DNA from: a virus
Taxonomy: Duplodnaviria; Caudoviricetes
Reading direction: 5' to 3' (one strand)
Length of the DNA: 64,000 nucleotides
Virus record (IMG/VR): IMGVR_UViG_3300032335_000777
Location: 45,984 to 109,983 of that record
Position 1 is the stretch's first letter. The number at the start of each line of letters is the position of its first letter. The position numbers and the translations under genes were made by a program. Positions 10,387 through 46,071 of this stretch are shown here, in pieces. Under the pieces are notes generated by a model. That model saw nothing but the letters and a program-made list of their open reading frames with translations. It did no database searches and had not been told where the DNA came from.

Positions 10387-13041
10387 TTACATAGATTTGA
10401 TTGCTTTTACAAGAGCTCCGTTTCTTTTACCACTTGATGATTTCTTAGCCATTTCTGCTGCTGTTTTTTCTTCAAGTTCTTTTTGAAGAGCCATGAGTTT
10501 ATATTGGTCAGAAGTCATATTTCCAAACGGTGTGTCAGAAGCTCCAGATCCTTGAGGAGCAAACTGAGCAAGAGGATTCATATTCATTGCTCTGAAGCGT
10601 GGATCAAATCTGTAATTGTAAAGATTCTCGTATGTCTGAAGGGCTCTGTTCTCAGCTTGATTCTGTAGATATTTAGCAGAAATAGAATTAAGAGCAGCCT
10701 GTGCTGTAGCCTTTGTATTAGAAAGAGCTTGTTGTTGTCTTACATACTGTTCGCCAAGAATTCCAAGATTTTGAGCACCAGCTTGATTTAGAAGATTTCT
10801 ATTTTCAGCAAACACCTTATCTCTCATAGATTGATTCAATCTAAACTGCTCACCAAGCACCTGTTGATTTGCTTGATACTTCTGTGCATTCAATGCAGCT
10901 AATGCAGCTGGATTATATCCAATCATTCTTTGAGCAGCTCTGTAATCAGCTTGGTTCTTATTGATAATGTCTTGAAGAGAAATATCATAAGGTGTGCTTA
11001 ATTGTGGTTGGAAAGTTTGTGCTTGTACAGGCTCTAATTGATTTTGAGCAAGAGCAAGCATCTCTCCAGATAGCTGACGTGGATCAAGAGCTTCTGCATC
11101 AGTTGGTCTCACGTAAGGTAAGATTTGATTAGCTATTGTCATCCAATCAAATTCTTCTTTAGTAGGCTTGGATTTTTGTTTAATTCCTGCCTTCTTAACA
11201 CTTTCAGGAACTTTAATTTCTAAACTTCCTGGTCCTCTTTGCATTTCTCTTTTAGCAAGTACATCAACCCCTGGTAAATCAATGTATTCTGGATAAGTCT
11301 CTAGTTGATTTTCTAACATATATCTAACTCCAGGTTCCAATGCTAAAGCATCTCTATATATCTTATCACTAATGTCTTCACCACCTTGAGCTTTCTTAAT
11401 AGAAGCTCCTTTCTTAGCTTGCTTCACTTTACCCTGTGCTAAATCATCAGCTACAAGATTATATTCTTCAGCAGTGTCATTGATAGCAGATTGTAGATCA
11501 GCTAGTTTTATTTTCTCATCAGCAATGTTCTTGAGCTTTTGATTTGCTCCAAGCATGTTTGCTTTGTATGATTCAAACTTGAGTAGGTCGTAAGGATTAT
11601 TAACATCTAGGTTGTCAAGTTCTGTAACAGCCTTATCAATAAGTTTATTTTGTTTCTGTTCAGTTTTAGATAGGTCAGCAACATAGTTTTTAAACTTCTT
11701 ACCTGCCGCTTTAGGAGCACCAATCATCTCAGCACCAAACTTTGGAACTTTTAAGTTACCATACACTGTAAGACTGTTTTCCCCATCTGATCCATTACGA
11801 AGTTGTAAAGCTGGTTCTCCTCTTTCCACTTCTACAGGACTATCACCATAAGTGATTCCAATACCTGTATTACCTTTTCCATCAGACTCATCGTGGGACT
11901 TACCTCTAAACATTACAGTTTCTCCTCCTTCAGGAAGATAAGGATTGTATGACATAGGTTCTGCATATCCACCCCAATGAGTTTCAAGATCACCACCCAT
12001 AGCAAACTTATCTCTTCCTGTATACATTGCACGTTCACTAGGAGGAGTGTAACTTTTCAAATGTCCACCTGCACGTAATGTATCCATTGTTGGATCAGGT
12101 TGTAACAATTGACTCAATTTGTAATTACCAAACTGATTAATTACTTGTGGATTTGCAATACCACCATCTCTCATATAAGAGGCGTTTGCTTGCTGAAGAG
12201 ATTGTGCTCCTTGACCAAGAGCACTTGCCATTACATTTTGATCAGTTATACCTTCGTACCGTTTTGTTTTCCTAACATTTCCGCTACCTACAAGATTACC
12301 AAGAGTTTGACCAGCAACCTTTCCAATCATTCCTCCAACTGGACCACCAAGTAATGTACCTGCTACACTTCCAATTCCAGCACCTACTCTTCCAGCACCA
12401 GTAACGCCATATCCTTTTGGACTTCCAAGTCCAGCAGTAACTTGTGCTAAAGCATCTCCACCACCTTGTTCTGCAAATTCATATACATCAGATAGTTGAC
12501 CCTGGACAGCATTTTTTCCTGTTGCCATTTTCATGAAGTCAGGATTAGTTTTAAACTGTGGAAGGTTTAATCCACCTTGAGCTTCTTCTAAATCTGTGTA
12601 AATAGTATTAGGAGCAAATGTATTTGCTATCTCTGTTCCATTCTTTGCAAGAGTGGTTCCTACACCATAAATTGGGAAGAACTCTTGTCCTGTATTAATA
12701 TTATCTTCTGGACGTACATATTTTTTCTGAACTTGCTCAGGACGTGTCATAGAAGCTTGAAGAGAAACATCACTCACACCAGCCATTTGTTGAGCCTTTA
12801 GCATGTTTTGTTTTTCATCCTTCATTTGTTGAATACCACCAACAACATCACCAACAGACTGAACTCCAGCAGCAAAGGCATTGCTTCCAGCAAGCTTATT
12901 CATCATTGCCATTGCTCCTCCTTGTTGGAGTTTCTTTACTTGTTTTCCATACTTAGCCATGAAAGACTCCTCTGTAGGAAACTTTTTATAAAACTCCTTC
13001 TCAGACTTAACACCTGCTATCTTTAAAATTTCAGCCTTCAT
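10387..13041 (-). CDS. Virion cargo protein with Gly-rich hydrophobic segment
   Basis: 884 aa; AGIGSVAGTLLGGPVGGMIG membrane-like segment, GKSH..G..VEVERGE motif, many hydrophobic-x-x-GG motifs, Gln/Ala-rich coiled C-terminus. Confidence 0.65.
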   Translation of the reverse strand: MKAEILKIAGVKSEKEFYKKFPTEESFMAKYGKQVKKLQQGGAMAMMNKLAGSNAFAAGVQSVGDVVGGIQQMKDEKQNMLKAQQMAGVSDVSLQASMTRPEQVQKKYVRPEDNINTGQEFFPIYGVGTTLAKNGTEIANTFAPNTIYTDLEEAQGGLNLPQFKTNPDFMKMATGKNAVQGQLSDVYEFAEQGGGDALAQVTAGLGSPKGYGVTGAGRVGAGIGSVAGTLLGGPVGGMIGKVAGQTLGNLVGSGNVRKTKRYEGITDQNVMASALGQGAQSLQQANASYMRDGGIANPQVINQFGNYKLSQLLQPDPTMDTLRAGGHLKSYTPPSERAMYTGRDKFAMGGDLETHWGGYAEPMSYNPYLPEGGETVMFRGKSHDESDGKGNTGIGITYGDSPVEVERGEPALQLRNGSDGENSLTVYGNLKVPKFGAEMIGAPKAAGKKFKNYVADLSKTEQKQNKLIDKAVTELDNLDVNNPYDLLKFESYKANMLGANQKLKNIADEKIKLADLQSAINDTAEEYNLVADDLAQGKVKQAKKGASIKKAQGGEDISDKIYRDALALEPGVRYMLENQLETYPEYIDLPGVDVLAKREMQRGPGSLEIKVPESVKKAGIKQKSKPTKEEFDWMTIANQILPYVRPTDAEALDPRQLSGEMLALAQNQLEPVQAQTFQPQLSTPYDISLQDIINKNQADYRAAQRMIGYNPAALAALNAQKYQANQQVLGEQFRLNQSMRDKVFAENRNLLNQAGAQNLGILGEQYVRQQQALSNTKATAQAALNSISAKYLQNQAENRALQTYENLYNYRFDPRFRAMNMNPLAQFAPQGSGASDTPFGNMTSDQYKLMALQKELEEKTAAEMAKKSSSGKRNGALVKAIKSM

Positions 13042-13042
13042 A

Positions 13043-16000
13043 TCAATTGTATTTATCCAGCCAGTTATCCTTGTCTGGGTTATTTGTAAAGTTAAGTAAT
13101 TGATTTAATTTTTTCATTGGTTGAGCATCTAATTGATTGATTCCCAATTTAGCAACAGGAAACTCTGTCACTTTCTTACCCTTGAATTTATAATTCTTTC
13201 CTGGCTTCATTAGCTTAGTGTCACCAGTGTCAGACACACCAAGAAGGGGTTCGTACACTCCTTGCATTGTTATGTTATTAGAATCTATTTCTACAGGCTT
13301 TCCCCAGTTGTCTGGATTCCAATATCCTCGATTATCTTTGGTCACTCCACCATTTTTAAAATTAGTATCGAAATCATAATCAGAAAAATCAAAATCAATA
13401 GTTTGTGGAGGACTAGAAATAGGAGCATTAGAAGATGCATCATAGACAGATCTTTTAACACCAAGTCTGTCTGCTATTGAATTTTTATTTAAATAGTCTT
13501 GAATTGCTTTATTTGTTGAACCTTTGGATATAGCAAACTTTGGTAATATTAAGCTATTAGCATATTCACTTTTGTTTATATAGGGTTTAGGAAGAGATTG
13601 TCCAGAAATACCTTCCAGCTCCTTAACTATTTGAGAAAGTTCAGATCTTACTAATTCAGGATTATTTATTCTGTCAGCAAATCCAAGTTCATTAGATTTG
13701 TCAAATCCAATAAGTCTTAGTTTTGAATCAGGATTATTTTTTAATTCACGGGCCATCATGTTAAGTGCCAATGGATAACTATCAGCTGATAAACTACGTG
13801 CTGGAAACATTACTCCATCTGGATTTTCATCGATGAATCTTGAAGCTTGACGAAGCATACTTCCCACATTATATCTGTCAGCAAACAAAGATGGCATTAG
13901 CTCATAAGCACCAGTTGAATTTGGTATTTGTGGAATAGTTGAAGCTGATGGAAGTCTTAAATTAGCATAAGTATCTATTATCTTATCACCAATATTTTTG
14001 TAAAATGGATATGAATAAAATTCATCACCCTCATCGCCCCATCCATAAGAATCTACATATAGTTTATTATCTACTTTTTTCAATGCTGGACGTTGTGACC
14101 ATTCTATATCAGCAGTAGTAGGGTCTACTCTATTTGTAGAAATATTTGTATAGTTTGGAGAAAAATCTGATACTTTTCCTAAATTAGGATATGTTCGAAA
14201 ATTTTCAAGTGCTGATAGTACATCTCCAGTAATTAGCTCTTCCGCCATTCGATTATTACTAAAAGAAGATATTGTATTAGAATAGCGTAATGCTAAATCT
14301 GGGTTGTTCCTTAATGTTTCTAAAGCAACTTTATTAGCTCCTTGTTTTTTTAGATTACTAATAAAATCATCGAGCTTAAAATCTGATAGCGTCTTTAGTT
14401 TATCATTTATAGAATTTAATTTATTTCTGACATCTGTTATACCAAGTGATTCAATTTCTTTAGCTTTTGCGCTAAGTTTTGTATATTTTTCACGAAGTGG
14501 ACCTAATTCATTAAGATTTGGATTTCTTAATTTTGATTCTAATTCAGCAATTTCTTTACCAAAGTTTCTAACATCTTTAACCTTATCAATATCTCTCAAT
14601 GCAGGAACATCTGCCACTGCAAGTTTTTCTAATTGTCTAGTGCGATCAATCTCCTTTATTGCATCTAATGTTTCATTTGTAACATTTGATATACTTTTAA
14701 GATGTGGGGCAACTGCTTTTCCAGCTGCAATTCCAATTGGTTTTGCAATTGGTGCTGTCATTAGAGGAACTAAACTAAATGTATCTAATGTATTAAATGT
14801 TCCTTCTAGATTTTGTTGATTAAATAATTCCTCTTTCGTAATTGGATTATATCCACCAAGTGATCCATACCCAGTTGGCGAAAATGCAGCAGCTCCAGTA
14901 ATACCAAGATCCAATAAAGTTTTACCTGCACCTTTTAGATTTTTAACAGGATCACCTGCAAATCTTATGGTGCCTGGAACTCCAGTTACTTCTGATGCAA
15001 CTTCTTGAACAGTTCTATAAGGTGTTGATATATCTTTAGCAGTTTGTCCTATCTTACCAGTTGTTGCAATTGCTCTAATACCTCTTCCTATTGGACCTTC
15101 ATCATTGATATATTTTTTTTGTTCAGGAGAAAGAGTTTGATAAAATGGATATTGTTGATCGTAAGGAGTTATGGTGACCTCAGGAAGTGGTTGACCTTCA
15201 TATATTTCTTCTCCACCATTCTGCATACTCTTTGGTTTCCAATCCAATCCATTCTGATAGAATCGCATTTCTCCACCATTCTGCTTCTTTTGTAAATCCA
15301 TAGATGGCATTCCTGCATATCTTCCAAATTGACCTACACTAGCTGGAGGTGCTGTAGGAAAGAAGGGAACATCAGAATATTGTTGAATAGCTTGTGTAGC
15401 ATCTGTACCACGACCCATGTAGGGTATAGACTGTAAAATATTAGATATAAGACTTGCATTAGTTTTTAGTCTTTTGTTTGCATAGCCAGCAGTAAGTAAT
15501 GGTCCTAAAAGTTTACCTGCTGTACCTACCTTTCCTAGAGGTAATGCTCCAAATATTTCAAGTTCTGTTTGAGGAGACATTCCAGTTTCTTGATATGATT
15601 TGTAAACATCATCCCAAGAACTCATTCCACTTGGATCAATTATTTCAAATATATTTTCTAAAGTAGAATCAACATTGCTTGCTGTTTTATTCTTTTGAAC
15701 GCCTTTTCCATTCTGTGCAGAAGCCATTGTCTTCTTTGCATACTTTCCTTTACTAGGAGCAGAACCAGCTGTACGTGCGTATGTGAATCCTACAGAACCA
15801 GGAATAGACATACCACCCATTGCCATTGGTAATTCTTCTTCGTCTGCTTTAGCAATAGTGTTCATTAAGTTGACAAAGTTTTTCTTACCCACTCTGTTTT
15901 CTAATCTTTTGAAAACTCTGTCTTTCCCCAAATTTTGTTTTGCTTTTTCAAAATCTGATTCTGTAAACTTTTGCCCCTTTGTAATATCATAAATGCCTTT

Positions 16001-16759
16001 ATCATACATTGTAAAACGAAGAGCATCTAAATCAGCTTTAAGTTCTTTTGGTTTTTGTGAATGCATGAAGTCTTCAAGAGCTCTTTTACTAGCTTCTCTC
16101 TGTTGAGAACCTTGTGGACCAGATAGAACAGGTTCTTTCATAGGAAGCATTGACTTCTTGAATATCTCTTGCTCTCTAGCACTCATTACGCCTGGACGTG
16201 TAGTTCCTTCACTCTCCATTGCACCAGCAATGTGTGCAAGCTCATGAGCTTCTACCATACCTCTATTTGTATCAATGTAGTCTAGTGGATTGATATTAAC
16301 TGTAGAAGAACTTCCATAAACTCCAGGTCTTGATTCAGATGGTTGTCTTGTGCTATATGTAATTGGATCAATATTCTGTAAACTCTCTAGTCTAATTTGT
16401 CTAGAAGCTGCTGCACTTGGAACACTTAAAGATTCATCTTTAGCAGATGGGGAGTATCCTGTAAGAAGTTGTCTTCTTGCATATTCAGGACTTTGAATCC
16501 ATGATTGATAAAACTCTACAGGATCTTTTGTTTGTAAATATGGAACAGTTGGAGAAATAACAGAAGGTGCTTGTCCAGTGATTTGTTCCATTGGTGAAAC
16601 TGGAATAAGATTGCCACCTCTTTGAAACTGTCCTCCCCATGCAGGAGAATAGTTTCTTCCTTTAGTGTTATATCCTAGTCCAACAAAGCCTTCAGAAAAG
16701 CTAACGTTTGAATCATTAGCGTTTTCTGCTTTCCCAAAGTTATCTAACCATCCTTTCAT
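13043..16759 (-). CDS. Modular virion-associated protein with zincin metallopeptidase domain
   Basis: 1238 aa; HELAH plus downstream ELKADL; modules separated by xxNGG/xxMGG motifs; C-terminal ITMQGV..PLLG..MKPG.Y.F.G..V.E.P domain. Confidence 0.6.
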   Translation of the reverse strand: MKGWLDNFGKAENANDSNVSFSEGFVGLGYNTKGRNYSPAWGGQFQRGGNLIPVSPMEQITGQAPSVISPTVPYLQTKDPVEFYQSWIQSPEYARRQLLTGYSPSAKDESLSVPSAAASRQIRLESLQNIDPITYSTRQPSESRPGVYGSSSTVNINPLDYIDTNRGMVEAHELAHIAGAMESEGTTRPGVMSAREQEIFKKSMLPMKEPVLSGPQGSQQREASKRALEDFMHSQKPKELKADLDALRFTMYDKGIYDITKGQKFTESDFEKAKQNLGKDRVFKRLENRVGKKNFVNLMNTIAKADEEELPMAMGGMSIPGSVGFTYARTAGSAPSKGKYAKKTMASAQNGKGVQKNKTASNVDSTLENIFEIIDPSGMSSWDDVYKSYQETGMSPQTELEIFGALPLGKVGTAGKLLGPLLTAGYANKRLKTNASLISNILQSIPYMGRGTDATQAIQQYSDVPFFPTAPPASVGQFGRYAGMPSMDLQKKQNGGEMRFYQNGLDWKPKSMQNGGEEIYEGQPLPEVTITPYDQQYPFYQTLSPEQKKYINDEGPIGRGIRAIATTGKIGQTAKDISTPYRTVQEVASEVTGVPGTIRFAGDPVKNLKGAGKTLLDLGITGAAAFSPTGYGSLGGYNPITKEELFNQQNLEGTFNTLDTFSLVPLMTAPIAKPIGIAAGKAVAPHLKSISNVTNETLDAIKEIDRTRQLEKLAVADVPALRDIDKVKDVRNFGKEIAELESKLRNPNLNELGPLREKYTKLSAKAKEIESLGITDVRNKLNSINDKLKTLSDFKLDDFISNLKKQGANKVALETLRNNPDLALRYSNTISSFSNNRMAEELITGDVLSALENFRTYPNLGKVSDFSPNYTNISTNRVDPTTADIEWSQRPALKKVDNKLYVDSYGWGDEGDEFYSYPFYKNIGDKIIDTYANLRLPSASTIPQIPNSTGAYELMPSLFADRYNVGSMLRQASRFIDENPDGVMFPARSLSADSYPLALNMMARELKNNPDSKLRLIGFDKSNELGFADRINNPELVRSELSQIVKELEGISGQSLPKPYINKSEYANSLILPKFAISKGSTNKAIQDYLNKNSIADRLGVKRSVYDASSNAPISSPPQTIDFDFSDYDFDTNFKNGGVTKDNRGYWNPDNWGKPVEIDSNNITMQGVYEPLLGVSDTGDTKLMKPGKNYKFKGKKVTEFPVAKLGINQLDAQPMKKLNQLLNFTNNPDKDNWLDKYN

Positions 16760-16760
16760 A

Positions 16761-17627
16761 TTACTTGTAACTTATTTGTGCTGCTCCAATAATGAATTGT
16801 GAAACTAAATGAGCATCTGATTTATTATCAAGAATGTGTCTGATTTTCAATTCTTTAGCTCTGAGAGGTTCTTTCTTAAATGATCTTGATCCATAGTCCA
16901 TGTTGATTTGATTCACTTCTTTATCAAGAGAAAGTGATTGACATGTTCTGACAAAGAGTGGTATGCTCTTGTCCTTCACTACAGACCAGAATGTATTGTA
17001 CTGATAGAAGTTATCACTCTTGGTAAATGTAATAGTCTTGCTTTCAGCATTTAATATAGGATATTGTAAGTAGGATTTCAAATTGTTTATTGGTTTTGGC
17101 ACAAGCTCAAGCACACCTGTTGATTGTTGTCCATTGTAAAGAACAGCTTTATTAAACCATGCATTGTCAAGTTCTATTCTTGATACATCATTTGACACAC
17201 CATAAGGATCACTAAAGTATTTGTACACCTTGGTATAGTCTTTTACATTCTGAAGAATCTCATCTTGGTATTGATATGCAAAAGGATATTCAATAATATA
17301 TGGTTCTATGTTTCCGTAGAATATATTATATATTGTATGGTTATTAAGATGTCTCCATACACAAGCTGTCTGAATAGTTTCTAAAGGAGTATTTTGATAT
17401 TGATTTTCTGTAATGGTAGTGACAGGGAATGATTTTTGGTACGCACACTTTCCTTCAGATGTAATTGTAATCAAATCAACACTATCATCTACAATGAAAC
17501 TAATGCCTGTAGTCACTTGTGAAAGTGTTACACCAGAGGCAATAACATTCCCAAACGCATCTGTGATGGTGAAAGGCCCTGCGTTAGGGCCTGTCTTTGT
17601 TAGCTTTATAGTGATTGTCTTTGACAT
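16761..17627 (-). CDS. C-terminal part of tail stabilization/muzzle protein with a small N-terminal beta domain
   Basis: VWRH..YNIFYG..PYIIEY and FNKAVLYNGQQSTG resemble the C-terminal region of crAss-like stabilization proteins. Confidence 0.6.
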   Translation of the reverse strand: MSKTITIKLTKTGPNAGPFTITDAFGNVIASGVTLSQVTTGISFIVDDSVDLITITSEGKCAYQKSFPVTTITENQYQNTPLETIQTACVWRHLNNHTIYNIFYGNIEPYIIEYPFAYQYQDEILQNVKDYTKVYKYFSDPYGVSNDVSRIELDNAWFNKAVLYNGQQSTGVLELVPKPINNLKSYLQYPILNAESKTITFTKSDNFYQYNTFWSVVKDKSIPLFVRTCQSLSLDKEVNQINMDYGSRSFKKEPLRAKELKIRHILDNKSDAHLVSQFIIGAAQISYK

Positions 17628-17640
17628 GTTATTTATTTAA

Positions 17641-20600
17641 TTACGAAGGTCCCTCAGTTGTAGTAGTTGTAGTAGTTGGTGGAGGGGAGCAATCACATTG
17701 TGGATCAAGACAACCAACACCTTGAGATAAGAATCCACAATCATCACTTATAACTTCAGTGACACATGCAGTGAAGCATAGTCCTTGATCTTCAGAAGGT
17801 ATGTTGTAAGTTATAGTTACACCATTTTCATTCTTGTATACAAATGTGCAACCACCAAATGGAGCTGATGTTAATATGTAACATTCAGATGGTATTTGAG
17901 TAGTTGATGTAGTTACTGTTGTACTTGTAGTTGTAGTGGTAATTGGATTTTGAGTGGTAGTTGTTGTAGTCGTGGTAGGTCCCTGAGTAGTTGTAGTTGT
18001 TGTAGTCGAAGGTGGAGTTGTGGTAGTTGTTGTGGTTGTAGTTCCACAAGTTCCAGCCAACACTTGAGTTATTTCATTTGTATAGTTTGTGTGTGTATTT
18101 GATTGCAAATAATACAAAGTACTCAAATTACCATTTATATAATAGAAGCCATTTGCATAATTTGTAAATGACCAGAATGGTTGAGGATTGGTGGTATTAC
18201 AATTTACATCTACATCGTATATCAAGAATGTATATTGAAGAGTAGTAGTTGTAGTTGTAGTTGTGGTAGGAATGCCTGTAGTGGTAGTTGTACTAGTTGA
18301 GCTAGTTGTTGTAGTTGTAGTTGGTGGTATAGCTGTAGTTGTTGTAGTGGTTGTAGAACTTGTCGTACTAGTAGTTGACGTAGTGCTAGTGGTTGACGTA
18401 GATGTTGTACTAGTGGTCGTACTAGTAGTTGATGTGGACGTGGAGGTTGTAGAAGTTGTAGAAGTTGATGTCGTACTTGTTGATGTTGTAGTGGTAGTAG
18501 TTGGATTAGGAACCAATGTTCCCACTAAGAAATCAAACTCTTCACAGCAATTATTTTGTCCAGAATAGAAGAAGTTATTCTCTGCAATATAGAAGTTTGG
18601 AAGATAGCTGTGGAAGCTTATCCAACTCTTTGTATTCATGTTGAAAGACAATGTCCATGATACATTGCAGAAGTATTCTTCATCACTAAGACTAACATCT
18701 TGTCTTATGGTTAGACCATTAACAACATTATTGATGTAGAAACTTTGTTCCACTGGATCATATAGAATGTTATTTGACTTTGGTGCATAATCAAGTTTTG
18801 TAATAATCACTCTATCATACACAGCATCATACACACCATGTAGTCCTATTCCCTTGAAGTGATTGTCAATTTTCACATCTGGGAAGTTATTATCAATCAT
18901 GAATGGTAGATGCTCAACAAAGAATCTGTTCATTCCTGATCCAAACCCAGACAAGTCAGTCACTTGTGTTCCCTGAATCAAGAACACTTGTCCTCTCTTT
19001 GCATCTATTGTAATTTGACCTTGAGGAATCTTTAGAAGCATCTTGTGTTGACTTCCTACATATCCAAGATCAGTTTCAGCAAAGTCAATTGGAGGAGCAC
19101 CTCTAAATAATAATGGATTACCTACATAAGCAGCTTGAGGGTTGCTTGTGTCGATAGTCAATAGATTATTGTATAATAATGACTTATTGTCAAATCTGGC
19201 TAGAATAGCTTTGTTTTGTATACCATCTAAGCTTACAAGATTTCCATAGTTCTGTGGGAAATCAAAGTAAGAAATAGCTCTATAGATAAGCCAGTTGTTT
19301 ATTCTATTGTCAGCATCAATGTTCTGGGCATCAGAATAGATTGTTCTGAATGGATAGTTTGTAAAACAAAGTCTTGCTTCCCAATCAGGAGGCAAATGAG
19401 TGAACGTATTCTCTTTGTTTTGCTTAGAGAATGTGGTGTTATAGAAGTAGGTGTTGTCTTGTGCAATAGGCACAAAACTTTCCTGAACCCAATCATCTGG
19501 AATGTCTGTACTAACATGTGGCCAGAATTCTCCTTCTCTATTGTTGAATGCTTGTCTTAAATCAAGGTTGTAAGAACTCTCGCAATAGAAGTTTGGAATA
19601 CCATAGGCAAACAGATAGAAGTAACCATCATAATATGTAATGGTTGAGCTTGGTGTCACTGCTCCAGATCCACCTGGAGGGAATGTTGTACTACTAGTAG
19701 TGGTGGTGGATGTAGATATAATCACATCTGTTCCCACTTCATTAGGACAGTCAAAGTTATGTGCTTTGTAAGAAATGATGTTTGCCATCACTCCTTGTCC
19801 AGGAATGCTGTAGTTCTCGAGAATTGATCTTGCAGAGTGCCAGTATCTAGGATAGGCAACATTACCTATCTCATCATAGAAGATGTCACTATCATCTGGA
19901 GCATTCACTCTATTGTCAATAAAGAATGGAAGCTTTGTTTTGAATGCGAACCTGCTAATAAATGTATCACCACCAAACACTGTAGTGGTTGGATTAGGTG
20001 AGTTAATTATGTATTGATAACCTGTATCAATTGTTTCGTATGAATAGATTTGTCCCCACTGATTGATGATTATATCTTTCAGTGATGCATAATATGAAAC
20101 AACCTGTATAGGTTCTTCTTTAGCTGGTGTTGAGCAGTTTCCTATTTCTGAAATAGTGAATCTTGATCTGTCTGAAACAATACTTGTTATTCCAGAAAGC
20201 ATGTTTGGACTCTGGTTAGGATAGGGAAGAGCTGTAGTGTCTATGTTTGTTTTTACAAAAACAGAGCTTTCTCTGTTCCAGTTGTTGATTGGAAGATCAT
20301 CACCAAGAGCTTGTACACCTGGGATTAAGTATCTAGATATATCAAGTTCTCTTTGTTTGATTCCTTGATTATCAGGAACACCTACACCATAGTTATAATC
20401 AGCAATAGAATTAAATGAGTATGCGTAGTTTCTTCTAGTGATACCATTAACGTAGATGGTCAAATAAGACTGATATGCAGTGAACATGGCTGTCGCACTG
20501 AATGGTGTAGTGATACCTCCAAGTCTAGCAGAACTATCAAGAGCAGCCTTCTGTGCAGCTTCAGTGAGCAGTTTGTATTTGGCATTATCCCTCACCTCTA

Positions 20601-33913: not shown

Positions 33914-34046
33914 ATATGTAGTTAATTATTTGATTGGTTTATATGATATAAATGTACTTTCGTTTGTAAAATAATCAAATATAGAATAATCAAAATTGTT
34001 GTATTTTTGACACGTATAGCATTAATGTTAATTTTTCCATATTTTA

Positions 34047-40393: not shown

Positions 40394-40426
40394 CAAATAT
40401 AAAACATCCTCAACGAAAATAACAAA
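40394..40426 (-). promoter_or_regulatory. Bacteroidota housekeeping-sigma promoter at the head of the structural block
   Basis: -33 TTTG (40423-40426), 21-nt spacer, -7 TATATTTG (40394-40401). Confidence 0.75.
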
Positions 40427-40439
40427 TTTTATTATTTCT

Positions 40440-40610
40440 GTTTTTCAATCGAGGCCCCACCCATGTGAGTAATTGAAAAGAAGCCCCCCACCAAAATTTT
40501 CAAAATTTGGAAAAATGTTGTGTCAATAGGAGGGTAGGTTACATCATATCAAAACCCCCTGCGGGGCGTGGCATGTTGGGGTGGTCCCCATGCTTCGAAC
40601 TATTATAAAA
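40440..40610. other. GC-rich strand-switch region with short inverted repeats
   Basis: Non-coding divergence point; C/G runs, CCCC-TGC-GGGG and GGGG-TGGT-CCCC hairpins, CCAAAATTTT/AAAATTTGG near-palindrome. Confidence 0.6.
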
Positions 40611-40627
40611 CAAAAACACAAACTAAG

Positions 40628-41026
40628 ATGGCAAAAGCAATCGAAATCACAGGCCCTCAAATCTTTCGTCTCAGAGTCCTAGAATCTGCTAGACCTTACT
40701 CAAAAGATTCTGCACTTGCAGGACAATTCTACTCTAGAATAACCTACAACGGAACAGTCCTTACCATTAATGATAAAGACCCATTCCTTGCAGACCTCAA
40801 GGCTGGCAGAGTTCACACTGCATTCCTACTTGAGACTGAAGAATCCATCACTGATGATGAAGGTAACACTAGCGTTGTTACACGATTAGCATTCGATGGC
40901 TACGCAAGCAATGCTCAAATGATTGGCTTGACCAAAACTGATGCTGTACTACAGAGCATCATGAAGGGTTCATTCAAAGCAGAAGCAGAACTTAGCGAGG
41001 AAGACATCTTGGCATTGGAGCAATAA
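40628..41026 (+). CDS. First early gene, hypothetical beta-rich protein (possible ssDNA-binding)
   Basis: ATG 40628 after an A-rich leader; 132 aa, C-ending codon bias, acidic C-terminus. Confidence 0.6.
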   Translation: MAKAIEITGPQIFRLRVLESARPYSKDSALAGQFYSRITYNGTVLTINDKDPFLADLKAGRVHTAFLLETEESITDDEGNTSVVTRLAFDGYASNAQMIGLTKTDAVLQSIMKGSFKAEAELSEEDILALEQ

Positions 41027-41161
41027 CGCTCCTTTGCCAATACACAGCGTAGCGAGAAATCGCTGCGCTCATCCTCGTGTATAGAAGAACACTCTAATGC
41101 ATCATCTAGCAAATAGATGACACATGTATATGTGGTGTGAAGATGTGTTCTTTATATACAC
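41009..41161 (+). ncRNA. Structured non-coding element
   Basis: AGCGUAGCGA-GAAA-UCGCUGCGCU hairpin, then GUGUAUAGAAGAACAC/GUGUUCUUUAUAUACAC stem enclosing two hairpins. Confidence 0.55.
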
Positions 41162-41387
41162 TAAGTAAAATGCAATGGTTTTATGGTAATGTACAATTTA
41201 ATAAAGTTTTACGCGGGAAAACTAAAACTTCATGTTGTACTTTATCAAGAATTAGTTGTGAGTAAGGGAGTAGGAGTGACACCACACACGTAATAAACAC
41301 ATGTTTTCGTAAGTGTTGATTTCTGTATTCACTATTTTATATAGCATTAACCACATAAAATGGCTGTACACAGCTAAACTAATAGTC

Positions 41388-41525
41388 ATGAGAAAGTATT
41401 CAATGATAGAAGTGTATTCAGATCTATATAAATGTTCTGATTTCATTCTTGAGCAAGTTATTGCATGCAATGAAGATGTGTTTAGCCTAGCAGCTAAGAG
41501 AGTTTTGTTAATTAGAAGCCTATAA
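41388..41525 (+). CDS. Hypothetical protein (45 aa)
   Basis: ATG 41388 preferred over the ORF-track start; abuts the next gene. Confidence 0.5.
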   Translation: MRKYSMIEVYSDLYKCSDFILEQVIACNEDVFSLAAKRVLLIRSL

Positions 41526-41526
41526 T

Positions 41527-41709
41527 ATGGAAAAGTCATTAGATGAATTGGTATATGCACTCTCTTTTGAGTGTAAAGAAGCTGTCTATTCTAACATAGA
41601 ACATAAAGAGTTTATTAGACAGATGGCAAAGAAGCTTGAGGAATTAGCTAGACAAATTAGTATTGAACATTATATTGCTATGCAAGAATCTTCTTACAAT
41701 GGACAATAA
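41527..41709 (+). CDS. Hypothetical protein
   Basis: 60 aa, followed by a terminator. Confidence 0.6.
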   Translation: MEKSLDELVYALSFECKEAVYSNIEHKEFIRQMAKKLEELARQISIEHYIAMQESSYNGQ

Positions 41710-41735
41710 GAGCCTGTAATAGGGCTCTTTTGTTT
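41708..41735 (+). terminator. Intrinsic terminator
   Basis: AAGAGCCU/GGGCUCUU stem plus UUGUUU. Confidence 0.75.
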
Positions 41736-41889
41736 AAATGCGTCATAACCTGTTTCCCAAGGACAGGCAGTTGTAGTTGGTTATGTCCTTACTAGTTAGG
41801 ATATAATCTGTAGACCTACTGTCACATAGATGACAGCATGTATAACATCGCCAAAGATGTGGGGCTACAACTGAACGCAGAGGGATATA
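41731..41889 (+). ncRNA. Twister-like self-cleaving ribozyme with large P5 insertion
   Basis: AA-UGCG(P2)-UC ... CCUGU-UUCCCAAGG-ACAGG (P4/L4) ... P5 ... CGCA-GAGGG; CCC/GGG pseudoknot; P1 weak. Confidence 0.6.
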
Positions 41890-41918
41890 TCATTGAAATA
41901 TTAAACACACAAATAAAC

Positions 41919-42155
41919 ATGGACAATATTCATTACGATAATCAAAGGATATATTGTGAGAACAATAAGGTTCCTTTCTTCGCTTCTTCATCTTGTGACC
42001 ATATGTATGGTTGGGTTAATGATGAAAGATATGGCAACACCCAGACATTAACAGAAATGTTAATTGAAAGATATGGGGATGAACAAGCATTTATTATAGC
42101 ATCTTCTTCACATATTACATCTTGTCCTGGATGTTGCAGAAGTTGGTGTGATTAA
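41919..42155 (+). CDS. Hypothetical Cys/His protein
   Basis: Start ATG 41919 (upstream extension overlaps the RNA element); SCDH and CPGCCRSWCD. Confidence 0.6.
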   Translation: MDNIHYDNQRIYCENNKVPFFASSSCDHMYGWVNDERYGNTQTLTEMLIERYGDEQAFIIASSSHITSCPGCCRSWCD

Positions 42156-42160
42156 GATTT

Positions 42161-42275
42161 ATTGTATGTGGCCACGTAGTGCCTTAATCCATCCGTGATG
42201 CATGTGTAAACATGTAGGATGGACATACAATTTCATTTGGAGGGTCAGATGCTCCCAAGCAGGTGCAAGGCCTGC
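42161..42275 (+). ncRNA. Structured intergenic element (3-way junction plus T-loop-like hairpin)
   Basis: AUUGUAUGU/ACAUACAAU closing stem, two inner arms; then GGAG/CUCC and GCAGG-UGCAAGG-CCUGC. Confidence 0.45.
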
Positions 42276-42309
42276 ATTTATTTATTCATTCATTTAAACG
42301 CACAACATT

Positions 42310-42432
42310 ATGATTACAGTATGTGTAATGCCCAATTTCAAGGGCACAAGAACAGAGACATTGCAAGCATTTGTTGTATGTGTCCTAATTGACAGTATGT
42401 ATTGTTTTCCATTTATCTATCACTATTTATGA
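42310..42432 (+). CDS. Small hydrophobic protein (40 aa)
   Basis: MITVCVMPNFKGTR...; ATGA overlap with the next gene. Confidence 0.5.
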   Translation: MITVCVMPNFKGTRTETLQAFVVCVLIDSMYCFPFIYHYL

Positions 42433-42716
42433 GAACGTTTAAAGATTTATTATTCAATACAGTGGACGATCGTAGTAATTGGATTCGTGCATTTATGAAG
42501 TTTGACAATGGATATGGTGTATCTGTTGTTCAGGGTCCTTTCAGTTATGGAGGTAAAGTAGGATTGTATGAACTTGCTGTCTTAGATGCTGATGGTGATG
42601 TATGTTATGACACACCCATCACTGATAATGTAATAGGCTTTCTTAAGCCTGAAGATGTCACTAAGCACATGATTGATATTCAAGAATTACCAAATTTAAA
42701 CACACAAACCAAATGA
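42429..42716 (+). CDS. Conserved phage hypothetical protein
   Basis: FDNGYGVSV..SYGG..GLYELAVL..YDTPITDNVIGFL pattern common in phage early regions. Confidence 0.7.
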   Translation: MRTFKDLLFNTVDDRSNWIRAFMKFDNGYGVSVVQGPFSYGGKVGLYELAVLDADGDVCYDTPITDNVIGFLKPEDVTKHMIDIQELPNLNTQTK

Positions 42717-43009
42717 ACACATTAAAATTAGTTAGAGGAATAGCGTTCAGCACTGCTATCCTCGCAGCAGTAGGAATGATTTTTATAATGATTTATGGAC
42801 TCCAGGTGGGTCTTAATGATTATAATCTTCTTGGTTCTCTTGCAATCTTCTGCATATCATCATTGTATGCTATTGCAGTTGATGCAGAGATTAGAAGAAG
42901 AAACGCTGAATCAGAAGCGATGAAGAAAGTTCATCAAACAACCATCAAACAGTGTATCTGGATGATGGTATTTCTGTTAGGTATGTCAACTCTTTGTCTG
43001 TTTCTATGA
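42713..43009 (+). CDS. Membrane protein (about 3 TM helices)
   Basis: Three hydrophobic stretches; coupled overlaps. Confidence 0.65.
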   Translation: MNTLKLVRGIAFSTAILAAVGMIFIMIYGLQVGLNDYNLLGSLAIFCISSLYAIAVDAEIRRRNAESEAMKKVHQTTIKQCIWMMVFLLGMSTLCLFL

Positions 43010-43221
43010 AATGGGCAAGGAGTTGTTCTATTACAGGTGAGGGGATGAATCAAGGATGGGTTGGAGATGATGGATGTGTGTATTTCAAATATGAAAAAGA
43101 TGCACGCAAATGGTGTGTAAGCAGGGGATATAGAGATATAGACGATGCTTATGCTGATGATGTAATTTATTACACAGAATGGGAAGAGTTTGAACAAGAC
43201 GCTGAAGATTATGATAATTGA
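43006..43221 (+). CDS. Hypothetical protein
   Basis: MKWARSCSITGEGMNQGW...YYTEWE; ATGA-coupled start at 43006. Confidence 0.65.
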   Translation: MKWARSCSITGEGMNQGWVGDDGCVYFKYEKDARKWCVSRGYRDIDDAYADDVIYYTEWEEFEQDAEDYDN

Positions 43222-43420
43222 AAAACGGAGTATTATATCTGGTAAGATTTATCAGATGGAATTGGATATCACTCAACAACAGTTGAATGATTTTGTTGAT
43301 GGTATATCAGGACTTGCTCAAGATGCATTTCCTCATTTATCTTGTGATGAACGTGAGTTCATTATATCTGGTATTCATCCAGTAGAATGGAGAGAGTTAT
43401 TTGGTGAATTAGAAGAATAA
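43211..43420 (+). CDS. Conserved phage hypothetical protein
   Basis: S.ISG....ELDIT...QDAFPHLS.DEREFIISGI...EW family pattern. Confidence 0.7.
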   Translation: MIIEKRSIISGKIYQMELDITQQQLNDFVDGISGLAQDAFPHLSCDEREFIISGIHPVEWRELFGELEE

Positions 43421-43428
43421 AAACGCAC

Positions 43429-43557
43429 ATGAAAAAAATTGACAAAAAAGAGCTTAGTAGAGCCATCGTGTTCTACAGCTTGTTAGCAGCTTTATCCATC
43501 ACACTCATTATGTGGTGGATTAATTTTATTAAGTATTTTCCAGAAATTATATTTTAA
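43429..43557 (+). CDS. Small single-TM protein (42 aa)
   Basis: MKKIDKKELSRAIVFYSLLAALSITLIMWW...; fills the gap. Confidence 0.55.
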   Translation: MKKIDKKELSRAIVFYSLLAALSITLIMWWINFIKYFPEIIF

Positions 43558-43559
43558 AA

Positions 43560-43940
43560 ATGAAAACGCACAAATTTTACAAAGAAGATGGTATATGGTA
43601 TATAGATCTTCCAGAGTTTCTTGAGTTGGGCCTTGGTACAAAGGCTAACTTGATGATGGTTGGAGGATCTGATACATATTTAGACAGATTATCAAATTAC
43701 ACTACAGAGGTGACTGTGTCATTCTCAAATGTGGATTTTAATGGGTCAACAGATACATTAAAAAGAACGAAGTTAGGATATGATGATATATATCTAAACT
43801 CAGTGGGTCACGCACAGGTTGATGGTGGTGCATATTACCAATCAACTGTTGATGACCATGATTTATGGCTTTGTCCTGTTACAAAATATGTATTTCAAGC
43901 AAACTATCCTGAATACATCTTCATAAAGAAAGAACAATAA
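43560..43940 (+). CDS. DUF6717-like protein
   Basis: WYIDLP..MVGG.D..LD ... WLCPVT.YVF..YP..I. Confidence 0.6.
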   Translation: MKTHKFYKEDGIWYIDLPEFLELGLGTKANLMMVGGSDTYLDRLSNYTTEVTVSFSNVDFNGSTDTLKRTKLGYDDIYLNSVGHAQVDGGAYYQSTVDDHDLWLCPVTKYVFQANYPEYIFIKKEQ

Positions 43941-44044
43941 TATTGATTATTGTGCGCCTGCTGAGCATCAGAATAAACTGCTCAATTATATAGCATTAAG
44001 TAAAAATCAAAGCAAATAAACAAACAATTAAAGCAAAAACGCAC

Positions 44045-44320
44045 ATGAAAGCACACACAACAATTGCAGATGTGTTGATGGACATCAATACGCCTGAAGC
44101 AGTAAAGAAGTTCGTTGTGATTACAGATCACGAGAACACATTTTACTTTTCCTATCCTGGAGAAGATGAATTCAATCCTCTAAAAGGGAATGTTTTTCTT
44201 ACACGCACATTTATTCCTTTCGCAATCAGTGTGCATCAAGAAGTGGGATCTCATTTTGTTTACAAATGGGATACAATGAATGAAGTTGTTAATCATTTTG
44301 ATTTACTCTTTAACTCTTGA
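44045..44320 (+). CDS. Hypothetical protein
   Basis: 91 aa, A-rich leader. Confidence 0.6.
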   Translation: MKAHTTIADVLMDINTPEAVKKFVVITDHENTFYFSYPGEDEFNPLKGNVFLTRTFIPFAISVHQEVGSHFVYKWDTMNEVVNHFDLLFNS

Positions 44321-44589
44321 TGGCCATGAAAGTAAAGAATAAAGAACAGCTCGATAACTTAATCATTACAATGGTTAAGCTTTATCCCACAAATTTACAA
44401 TACGCATTCAAGCGTGTGAGTGATGTCACTGGGATTAAACCATTAGTTGTAACAAACAGATGGTATAGTAATATTAGACATCGTAGTGAGGTGATTTACA
44501 AGGTAGTCACTGATGAAGTGGAGATTAGAAACACTAAGACTACTAGATCAGATTTAATTGAAATGCTCATCAATAAATTTAGGATATGA
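44317..44589 (+). CDS. Possible HTH protein
   Basis: YPTNLQYAFKRVSDVTG....VTNRWY helix pattern. Confidence 0.5.
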   Translation: MMAMKVKNKEQLDNLIITMVKLYPTNLQYAFKRVSDVTGIKPLVVTNRWYSNIRHRSEVIYKVVTDEVEIRNTKTTRSDLIEMLINKFRI

Positions 44590-44840
44590 AACCTCAACTG
44601 AAAGAACATATGAAAAATATGACAAGTTTTATTGCAATGATCCTAGCGTTTTACATATTTGTGTATTACATGATTACGCTAGTATTGATAATAACGTGTA
44701 GAACATTGGAATTACACCCATCTTTGGGATTTCTAGCTCATGTAATAGCTTCGTTGACGATTCTATTAACAATATACATGTATGAGCCACGTAAAAACAA
44801 AGACGATAAAACTCACAGAGGAGGAGATCGAGAACTTTAG
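44586..44840 (+). CDS. Membrane protein (2 TM)
   Basis: Two hydrophobic stretches. Confidence 0.55.
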   Translation: MKPQLKEHMKNMTSFIAMILAFYIFVYYMITLVLIITCRTLELHPSLGFLAHVIASLTILLTIYMYEPRKNKDDKTHRGGDREL

Positions 44841-44949
44841 AGCAATTGCTGACAAGTTCAATGTCAAATTTCATGTTAAACAAATTAAAGACAATTATCA
44901 TGTTACAGCCCCAGAGGATAAACTAATCCAATGGGGCTATTACGAATAG
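44782..44949 (+). CDS. Hypothetical protein (55 aa)
   Basis: MSHVKTKTIKLTEEEIENFRAIADKF...; below the ORF track cutoff. Confidence 0.55.
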   Translation: MSHVKTKTIKLTEEEIENFRAIADKFNVKFHVKQIKDNYHVTAPEDKLIQWGYYE

Positions 44950-44953
44950 AATT

Positions 44954-45097
44954 ATGAGCGCATTCACAGAGGAAGAAGTAGACACTCTCATAGAATTGTG
45001 GCGAGATAGGCTTACAATTAAAGAGATGGCTTGGAAAATGAAGAAAAAGCCTACACAAGTGTATTATCAGCTCAAGAAGCGTTCATTAGTAGGATAG
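44954..45097 (+). CDS. Small HTH protein (47 aa)
   Basis: FTEEEVDTLIELW....TIKEMA.KM.K....VYYQL Myb/GcrA-like HTH pattern. Confidence 0.65.
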   Translation: MSAFTEEEVDTLIELWRDRLTIKEMAWKMKKKPTQVYYQLKKRSLVG

Positions 45098-45147
45098 TAA
45101 ATGGGTTTGATGTTAAACTGAGTCGCCAGTGCTTTCCAGTGGCAAAT

Positions 45148-45251
45148 AGTCAGGTGGTGGAATGAAGACACACATTGGAACTGCTTGTAAAAGTAATGGC
45201 ACATTGAGATAACCTTAGATGTGCGTACAGGTTCGAATCCTGTCCTGACTA
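45148..45251 (+). tRNA. tRNA-Leu-like RNA with aberrant anticodon arm (pseudo-tRNA or mimic)
   Basis: Acceptor AGUCAGG/CCUGACU-A, U8G9, D-arm GUG/CAC, T-arm ACAGG-UUCGAAU-CCUGU, 26-nt variable arm; no 7-nt anticodon loop; no encoded CCA. Confidence 0.75.
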
Positions 45252-45270
45252 CACACTAAAAACAAAACAC

Positions 45271-46038: not shown

Positions 46039-46071
46039 TGTCCAGTTTTAATCACTGGACATTTTTATTTT
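46039..46071 (+). terminator. Intrinsic terminator
   Basis: UGUCCAGU/ACUGGACA stem followed by a U run. Confidence 0.75.

Follow-up and report, generated by a model that had tools for sequence, protein, structure and literature searches.

Conserved RNA modules, two of them candidate processing signals, among the first early genes of an uncultured crAss-like phage

Results and Discussion

Studying the start of the early arm of an uncultured crAss-like phage reveals folded RNA modules among the small genes of its first 4.6 kb. We lean slightly towards reading this region as small genes interspersed with conserved non-coding RNA modules, two of which, a probable twister-class ribozyme and a tRNA-Leu-shaped RNA, would be processing signals. 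The window analysed is a stretch of 64,000 nucleotides, and all features lie on its + strand unless stated otherwise. The larger + strand gaps, listed after the start of the open reading frame at 41838 had been moved to 41919, are 41027-41387, 41710-41918, 42156-42309, 43941-44044 and 45098-45270. A preliminary description had assigned folded elements to such gaps. The elements at 41009, 41731, 42161 and 45148 are indeed folded and conserved; the one at 43958 is not (fold z -0.5, and above 0 in a second test), its fold being no better than that of shuffled sequence. Only two of these five elements are modules of a processing type.

Promoters and polymerase

A perfect Bacteroidota-type promoter of the form TTTG-N-TAnnTTTG (TTTG ... 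TATATTTG) was found by a pattern scan on the - strand at 40394-40426, oriented leftward at 40426, in a region that is invariant in five relatives (alignment A3). It is predicted to drive the leftward arm and to mark the divergence point of the two arms. On the + strand the scan found no TAnnTTTG box between 37792 and 47878, compared with 31 on the + strand of the whole 64 kb, and sigma-70-like matches are rarer than expected by chance (22 observed versus 34 in shuffles). The earlier remark that no clear host promoter is seen is therefore correct for the Bacteroidota type. The virion RNA polymerase that it presumed is also encoded: a crAss-type gene with the DFDID motif is present and matches crAss-like polymerase genes (E 4e-23).

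Promoters of N4-type virion RNA polymerases are short hairpins whose loop has 3 nt and whose flanks are conserved; they are found upstream of early genes in few copies per genome. In this phage two short all-G/C hairpins are located at 40555-40589, 40-70 nt upstream of gene 1; a hairpin scan of the 110-kb genome finds three hairpins of this kind, including these two. In the relatives the hairpin potential is kept and the loops are changed (alignment A3). We tentatively regard the pair as a candidate early promoter or 5' leader. Neither these hairpins nor the 11-mer described below are similar to the N4 promoter sites.

The twister-class ribozyme candidate

The element at 41731 (fold z -3.9) is probably a twister-class self-cleaving ribozyme of type P1, as judged from a family alignment and its covariation. 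The candidate covers about 41730-41890 and comprises L1 (AAA, 41736-41738), P2 (41739-41743 with 41875-41879), P4 (41749-41753 with 41763-41767), L4 (UUCCCAAGG, 41754-41762), the base of P5 (41768-41776 with 41866-41873), which encloses a folded insert of about 90 nt, and GAGGG (41880-41884). The cut is predicted at about 41736|41737.

The phage subfamily to which it belongs has at least 83 distinct members, found almost exclusively in phage contigs. Common to these 83 are UAA, P2, P4, the L4 loop UUCCCAAGG, P5, P2' and GAGGG, with UAA, UCCCAAG and GAGGG as conserved core. UAA is found in 81 of the 83 members, and 81 of 83 likewise have UUCCCAAGG as L4; GAGGG occurs in all members because the search pattern required it. 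All five positions of P4 form standard pairs in every one of the 83 members, with two to four types of pair per position. In P2 the pairing holds in at least 82 of the 83, and two of its pairs covary. P1 is paired in 64-80% of the family and is weak in this phage (4 of 6). The paired fraction exceeds that in all 1000 partner shuffles both for P4 (1.00 versus 0.73) and for P1 (0.70 versus 0.53). The inserts in the P5 stem vary from -3 to 479 nt (median 71).

Compared with the type-P1 twister (RF03160), a class reviewed in PMC5408937 and assayed for activity on a large scale in PMC11662667, the parts come in identical order, i.e. P1, UAA, P2, P4, L4, P2', GAGGG, P1'. Both have UCCCAAG within L4, an A after the cut site and an optional P5 stem, and in both L4 CCC is complementary to GGG. 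The putative T1 contact, between CCC(A) of L4 and GGG of GAGGG, is invariant on both sides and hence without covariation signal. The nucleotides conserved in twister L1 (UAA ... GAGGG) and L4 (UCCCAAGC) are found, with G, not C, as the last L4 base, and L4 matches the P4/L4 sequence of the rice twister in PMC11662667. In this phage AAA replaces UAA, so that position -1 is A instead of U, which is reported to be tolerated in twister (PMC11662667). The T2 pseudoknot is plausible only: the GG of L4 could pair with CC or UC of L2, but covariation of the first L2 base with the base preceding P2' (CG 69, UA 12, UG 2) makes it look like part of a fifth P2 pair. Unlike the type-P1 twister, the phage family has an L4 of 9 nt ending in GG and not in GC, CC or UC instead of GC in L2, no P3, a short and AU-rich P1, and a conserved P5 base of 8-9 bp with inserts of up to 479 nt. 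It also falls far below the Rfam threshold and occurs almost only in phage contigs. The family member that scores best is the minimal one, L188, to which the whole of the RF03160 model aligns, with 18.8 bits compared to a gathering score of 67.2; on 41700-41900 or on L218 the Rfam twister models give no match at E up to 10.

Directly 5' of the cut site, at 41708-41729, a terminator scan identified a G+C-rich hairpin followed by a U run, as in intrinsic terminators. It is 100% identical in the relative L003, and the same hairpin precedes the twisters of L218 and L219; in 79 of 102 members of the ribozyme family a hairpin ends no more than 7 nt from the cut site. This hairpin may act as an intrinsic terminator, as a cap left by cleavage on the 3' end of the upstream message, or as both. 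The next gene (41919-42155) likely starts at ATG 41919, judged from the sequence; ATG 41838 falls within the P5 insert. In L007 positions 41737-41887 are kept at 99% identity, without the remainder of this downstream gene.

The tRNA-Leu-shaped RNA

The RNA at 45148-45251 has a tRNA-Leu frame with intact acceptor and T arms, a D arm without GG and discriminator A; CCA is not encoded, and two hairpins take the place of the anticodon arm. The Rfam tRNA model RF00005 scores 37.1 bits (gathering score 29), matching the acceptor, D and T arms and skipping 43 nt at the anticodon arm. A canonical tRNA, with a cloverleaf that includes a 5-bp anticodon stem and a 7-nt loop, was therefore rejected, and ARAGORN finds none. 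Ordinary tRNA genes were not found in this phage, nor was a terminator-like site around the RNA in the terminator scan. A 7-bp hairpin (45125-45143) that is conserved in L016 and L017 lies 4 nt 5' of it.

The RNA belongs to a tRNA-Leu "chassis" family (AGTCAGG/CCTGACTA), in which acceptor and T arm are invariant, the insert varies and the discriminator is A; it comprises 115 distinct forms among 146 copies. The 25 nt at its 3' end are identical in more than 120 phage contigs. In the relatives L008, L009 and L016 the cargo of the frame is swapped, and two copies occur among close relatives; L017 shows a compensatory A-U to G-C change in an insert hairpin. The two module families co-occur, as the exact 22-mer of the chassis is found in 8 of 122 twister loci.

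Like the chassis RNAs of uncultivated phages, the RNA has the identical acceptor stem and T arm, the discriminator A, a Leu-type D arm, no anticodon arm and a variable insert. Stable tRNA-like RNAs are also known from phages T4 (RNA C and D) and T5 (RNA1-3). Unlike all of these, the RNA described here is present as a single copy among early protein genes and not in a tRNA cluster, in a phage without ordinary tRNA genes, and its D loop has no GG.

Other conserved elements

Gene 1 (40628-41026; 132 aa, no family match) ends in two strong hairpins (41009-41080). The first (41009-41040) has the stop codon within its loop and the second (41046-41069) consists of a 10-bp stem with a GAAA loop; fold z-scores are -7.1 for the 100-nt window 40980-41079 and -3.8 for 41020-41135. 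Folds as strong as those of the gaps are also seen in the coding windows 42940-43039 (z -7.1) and 43580-43679 (z -5.5). A strong hairpin is located at the 41009 position in every relative, even in those with a different gene 1. The hairpins are likely a terminator or a 3' stabiliser of the gene 1 message.

Next to them lies a conserved non-coding block (41103-41350; alignments A1 and A2), which contains a small hairpin at 41103-41119, whose loop is GCAAA, and a central one of about 60 nt (about 41187-41245), and which terminates at the 11-mer TATAGCATTAA. The GCAAA hairpin shows three compensatory pairs between lineages. For the block as a whole RNAalifold finds one G-C to C-G swap, the other changes being mostly one-sided and of the G-U type. 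It could represent a conserved structured leader or a non-coding RNA, in a position comparable to that of the stable early non-coding RNAs of phage phi14:2.

A further conserved folded RNA of about 70 nt, M4 (42161-42231), folds into an outer stem of 8 bp, with a small hairpin to the side and a long arm that ends in a GNRA loop (fold z -2.6 to -3.3). M4 is 97-99% identical in the relatives, compared to about 85-90% in its flanks; between relatives, U-A is replaced by C-G in the pair that closes the loop, and GUAA by GAAA in the loop itself. In L162, L178, L195 and L305 it adjoins a twister cut site, and this twister is precisely absent from the phage studied here. As a folded RNA, M4 may in those relatives be released or capped by the adjacent twister. 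It is followed at 42236-42285 by a hairpin (42236-42258) and a second, G+C-rich one with a T-rich tail (42259-42275), which resembles an intrinsic terminator with its U run; most relatives keep this stretch at 93-94% identity, compared with 86% in L003.

In the 43941-44044 gap only a 6-bp hairpin (43962-43984) and a second copy of the 11-mer (43989-43999) were found, and the remainder is unstructured and A-rich. This gap, together with coding windows that reach z below -5, would fit the assumption that the folds are chance hairpins of AT-rich spacers without function. Such an assumption is extremely improbable for the arm, since the elements are members of covarying families, the score of the tRNA model exceeds its gathering threshold, and non-coding pieces are 97-99% conserved amid flanks of 85-90% identity. 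For four of the five elements it is refuted by the family and conservation data.

Transcription units

The 11-mer TATAGCATTAA occurs at 41340-41350, 43989-43999 and 34015. Four genomes carry exactly three copies each, with strand and spacing unchanged, and the reversed 11-mer gives no match in the three relatives. The copy at 43989 is possibly a promoter or a protein-binding site rather than a folded element. We consider it possible, but rather doubtful, that the arm has an ordinary architecture, in which terminators and an 11-mer promoter split it into short units with the ribozyme and the tRNA-like RNA as passengers. The terminator scan found ten sites where 3.2 are expected, those on the + strand including 41708, 42259 and 46039, and in three relative lineages (L007, L009 and L017) the hairpin at the 41009 position is intrinsic-terminator-like, with a U-rich tail. 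In addition, the sequence 3' of the 11-mer differs between relatives, as it would after a shared promoter. However, no -35 partner consistently accompanies the 11-mer, which also fails to match the Bacteroidota consensus, its copy at 34015 is directed against the late genes, and no U run follows the gene 1 hairpins of this phage itself. The terminator-like hairpins at 41708 and 42259 and the 11-mer at 41340 and 43989 suggest several transcription units, and argue against the single long transcript of the preliminary description.

Proposed processing of early messages

The elements, their families, covariation and positions are observed, whereas cleavage activity, co-transcription with flanking genes and the polymerase responsible are inferred. 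The twister would cut itself at its predicted site. This would leave the upstream message (genes 41388-41709) with the 41708-41729 hairpin and a 2',3'-cyclic phosphate at its 3' end, and the downstream message would begin with a 5'-OH and carry the ribozyme as leader, 34 nt before ATG 41919. Host RNase P and 3' tRNA-processing enzymes would be expected to excise 45148-45251, which would separate a message ending in the 45125-45143 hairpin from one starting 19 nt before ATG 45271. The ribozyme and the tRNA-like RNA each lie 3' of a hairpin, with the next start codon following after 19-34 nt; once cut, the upstream message would therefore be capped by a hairpin and the downstream message would have a short leader. 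The modules proposed earlier for such processing had been ribozymes, tRNA-like RNAs and pseudoknots; the first two kinds are represented by the elements described here, and beyond the pseudoknot of the ribozyme, itself putative, no pseudoknot module was confirmed.

Both module types have variable inserts, and they are swapped or lost between close relatives. Insert variability and swapping fit independent RNA genes as well as punctuation. The framed elements could accordingly be stand-alone small RNA genes, whose frames give a cargo defined ends and stability, with message cutting as a side effect. This we hold to be a tentative and somewhat improbable explanation. Both families combine a near-invariant frame with a varying insert, the tRNA cargo is swapped or doubled in close relatives, one twister is precisely missing here, the two families share loci, and insert hairpins show compensatory changes. 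On the other hand, the inserts have no known target or partner, the ribozyme remains on the downstream message unless a second cut occurs, and the placement just after hairpins and just before start codons is regular.

Comparison with known systems

Punctuation by ribozymes is itself known for phage transcripts, in print since 2011 (PMC3088659), and to call the arrangement an undescribed system, as was suggested before, is too strong. In that study hammerhead ribozymes were found to flank genes in prophages, with HHphage in the haloviruses HF1 and HF2, and were proposed to cut long phage transcripts into gene-length messages; one of them is placed 13 nt ahead of the gene that opens an early polycistronic transcript, whose mapped 5' end is at the cut site. 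The present candidate would likewise be a self-cleaving RNA between phage genes. It differs in belonging to another ribozyme class, in being single and not part of an array, and in being accompanied by a tRNA-shaped module, in a phage that is crAss-like and has a virion RNA polymerase. An operon that combines punctuation by a ribozyme with punctuation by a tRNA-shaped RNA seems not to have been reported previously.

In phi14:2 the virion RNA polymerase transcribes the early genes, and no common early promoter motif was found; long gene-free stretches after the first early genes are transcribed early and highly and stay abundant (bioRxiv 10.1101/2020.03.07.982082). The phage studied here has the same kind of polymerase and also long gene-free stretches just 3' of its first early genes. 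The two show no sequence similarity in this comparison, the 11-mer is absent from phi14:2, and one phi14:2 stretch matches the tmRNA model, unlike our phage, which has no tmRNA within the 64-kb window.

The early transcript of T7 contains RNase III processing sites, and mitochondrial transcripts are punctuated by tRNAs. As in these systems, in the proposed scheme a polycistronic transcript would be cut at folded intergenic signals, a 3' hairpin left behind would stabilise the upstream message, and tRNA shapes would mark cuts. They differ from it in host enzymes and signals.

Implications

It seems quite unlikely to us, though conceivable, that these lake phages use two self-processing frames, the open-P5 twister and the anticodon-less tRNA-Leu shell, to make early folded cargo RNAs which are swapped quickly because they act on host factors or defences. 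If so, the early arm of crAss-like phages would in part be a locus for RNA effectors, to which kind the long early non-coding RNAs of phi14:2 would also belong.

The large, almost phage-only twister subfamily is missed by current Rfam models, and the number of ribozymes counted in phage genomes is therefore probably too low. Early gene expression in crAss-like phages is poorly understood, and the mapping of RNA ends could be anchored at testable sites: a ribozyme cut predicted at about 41736|41737, an RNase P site predicted at 45148 and the 11-mer found thrice per genome.

The phage and its putative polymerase

Of the 110-kb IMG/VR phage record, the window covers the final 64 kb. Matches to crAss-related families were obtained for the terminase, portal and capsid genes. 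Among cultured phages, Leptolyngbya phage Lbo-JY46 (40% identity) and the 145-kb Cellulophaga phages (32%) are closest. Two divergent gene arms start at about 40400 (leftward) and at 40628 (rightward); the rightward arm is called early by analogy. For ten early proteins Pfam gave just two domains, both of unknown function and one under Pfam's cutoff, and blastn of the early region gave no match in cultured phages.

The motif DFDID is found inside a 4825-aa ORF whose N-terminal part occupies window positions 1-7767. Its surroundings match 131 crAss-like phage records, some of them annotated as RNA polymerase (tblastn, best E 4e-23). It is this tblastn result, instead of the search against solved structures, which provides the link to the polymerase, as the latter search gave no sequence match between the giant proteins and the phi14:2 polymerase. 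The phi14:2 counterpart of the DFDID protein is a virion polymerase which transcribes the early genes (bioRxiv 10.1101/2020.03.07.982082); that the phage studied here carries one as well is a premise based on homology. The same ORF (window 1-7767 plus 12874-19584, - strand, of phage contig L147) also includes, close to the C-terminus, a region resembling Dda helicase (PHROG 325, E 2.7e-65). Also on L147, a 2378-aa protein (109-7245, - strand) is probably a fibre: about 260 of its residues form a Gly-X-Y stretch resembling collagen chains (E 1e-91), and it has a region similar to UspA1.

Promoters, terminators and leaders

A perfect Bacteroidota-type promoter, invariant in relatives, is located at 40426 and points leftward. 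No TAnnTTTG box was found on the + strand between 37792 and 47878, sigma-70-like matches are fewer than expected from shuffled sequences, and a k-mer search of all intergenic regions did not detect an abundant shared promoter motif. The candidate AACGCACA was rejected as a promoter motif, being found 34 times with 33 expected, which is no enrichment; it is a piece of the A/C-rich leader upstream of start codons. Leaders of this AAACRCACA type, lacking a Shine-Dalgarno sequence, precede the starts at 40628, 41919, 42713, 43429, 44045, 45271 and 45429, which fits a Bacteroidota host.

Terminator-like sites are enriched (10 versus 3.2 expected), those of the + strand including 41708-41729, 42259-42275 and 46039-46061. 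Two of the only three all-G/C hairpins in the genome, at 40555 and 40578, lie directly upstream of gene 1 (40628-41026, +). Elsewhere in the arm, an 18-bp hairpin at 42987-43025 (z -7.1) spans the stop/start overlap of the genes 42713-43009 and 43006-43221 and may affect translational coupling. An ORF of 55 aa in another frame (44782-44949), which overlaps the 3' end of gene 44586-44840 and occupies a "gap" kept in all relatives, could be a genuine small gene or result from a frameshift.

A twister-class ribozyme candidate at 41731

The hairpin 41749-41767 was found again in 15 phage contigs and the 18-mer 41867-41884 in at least 119. At least 83 distinct members could be parsed, all following a single plan: UAA, a 5-bp P2, a short linker, a 5-bp P4, P5, P2' and GAGGG. 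P4 is closed by UUCCCAAGG, and a conserved P5 stem surrounds an insert with a median of 71 nt. P4 is paired in all parsed members, using 12 different stems, and P2 covaries; the pairing of P1 is weaker than that of P4 and P2, yet beyond all shuffles. The family fits both the P4/L4 sequence of the rice twister (PMC11662667) and the class definition (PMC5408937). The Rfam type-P1 twister model aligns end to end with a minimal family member, reaching only 18.8 bits, and makes no call on the window's own copy. In this copy position -1 is an A, a base reported to be tolerated there (PMC11662667).

The 18-mer of the 3' half has 36 matches in bacterial genomes, where by our own estimate about 70 are expected by chance. 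Because only three of the 36 also possess the 5' half and are real members, the subfamily occurs essentially in phages only. The downstream gene probably starts at 41919, since the ATG at 41838 falls within the P5 insert and contig L007 retains 41737-41887 without the remainder of the gene. The twister-like family also has a second form, left out of the parsed set, in L062, L071, L211, L214, L221 and L222; this form has a longer 5' half with GAUGUGAAACCACCUGAUUAAC ... GUUAAUCAG upstream of the L4 loop.

The 42161 element is a 70-nt fold with 97-99% identity in relatives, and a pattern search for it matched clade relatives only. In four contigs (L162, L178, L195 and L305) it lies directly upstream of a twister cut site. 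The window has no twister after this element, the junction being located precisely at the ribozyme borders, and L007 has two twisters. The following stretch 42236-42285, a hairpin plus a terminator-like site, is conserved in all relatives. The hairpin 42236-42258 was also considered as a second, permuted twister, a reading rejected because P1, UAA and P2 could not be accommodated there.

The tRNA-frame RNA at 45148

The acceptor, D and T arms of the RNA at 45148-45251 (+) match the tRNA model, and two hairpins take the place of the anticodon arm. More than 120 contigs carry its 3' 25-mer unchanged, often in multiple copies each, and 146 copies of the family represent 115 different forms. In relatives of the phage the insert is swapped, a D-loop insert is added, or two copies are present. 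The close relative L016 has tandem tRNA-frame RNAs (1646-1779 and 1889-1996), one with a 30-nt D-loop hairpin insert, the other with the variant acceptor AGTCAGA/TCTGACT and a different insert.

ARAGORN detected neither tRNA nor tmRNA in the window or the whole genome, which is without an ordinary tRNA gene, and a scan of the whole window with Rfam at gathering thresholds returned nothing. Both halves of the tRNA frame together occur in no cultured phage, the matches being ordinary tRNA-Leu or tRNA-Gln. The exact frame sequence is present at 8 of 122 twister loci. A clear tmRNA (88.9 bits, E 2e-33) was seen in the 110-kb phage contig L195 (303-732, -), ~1 kb downstream of a twister of the subfamily. 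For phi14:2 the gene-free stretch between g005 and g006 is reported to yield large amounts of an early non-coding RNA with unknown function (bioRxiv 10.1101/2020.03.07.982082); at this stretch (L187, NC_021806, 4031-4502, +) we observed a full-model Rfam tmRNA match of 46 bits (gathering score 47, E 2.6e-16).

Hairpins at 41009, the block 41103-41350 and the 11-mer

The 41009 element consists of two hairpins flanking the stop codon of gene 1 (z -7.1). A strong hairpin is found at this site also in relatives with a different gene 1, with a U-rich tail in L007, L009 and L017, and we read these hairpins as a terminator or 3' stabiliser, not a ribozyme.

The block 41103-41350 is kept in every relative and has mosaic flanks. 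It includes a small GCAAA-loop hairpin with three compensatory pairs between lineages and a central hairpin of ~60 nt, where a single G-C pair is swapped to C-G and most one-sided changes, read on the + strand, are of G-U type. The only true matches to a pattern of 41124-41351 are clade relatives; 11 of the 26 contigs matched by TAGGAGTG...TATAGCATTAA look like chance, as does L185, matched by the AATGTACAA... pattern.

Conservation of the block ends precisely at the 11-mer TATAGCATTAA, and the sequence 3' of the 11-mer varies among relatives. In the genome of this phage it occurs three times, always intergenic and on the + strand (34015-34025, 41340-41350 and 43989-43999); the first copy separates the portal gene from the late gene that follows and is oriented against the late genes. 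Each of three related genomes also has exactly three copies, with strand and spacing preserved, and none of the reversed control. The 11-mer may be a promoter or binding site. The 43958 gap, listed as a folded element in the preliminary description, is not folded; it holds a 6-bp hairpin and the 11-mer.

Proposed transcript cutting at two sites

The twister and the tRNA-frame RNA are each located 3' of a hairpin and 19-34 nt upstream of a start codon. For 79 of the 102 twister-family cases, the distance from the end of a hairpin to the cut site is at most 7 nt. From this placement, cutting at the two modules would be expected to give hairpin-capped upstream messages and downstream messages with a short leader. 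The concept has already been published for hammerheads of prophages and haloviruses (PMC3088659). The proposal that an early transcript of the virion polymerase is cut and protected by folded gap elements would apply only to the twister and tRNA-frame sites, with a hairpin before and a start after. We infer that the early arm may use cutting and protection at these two sites, in an arm that also has terminator-like hairpins and what may be a promoter motif.
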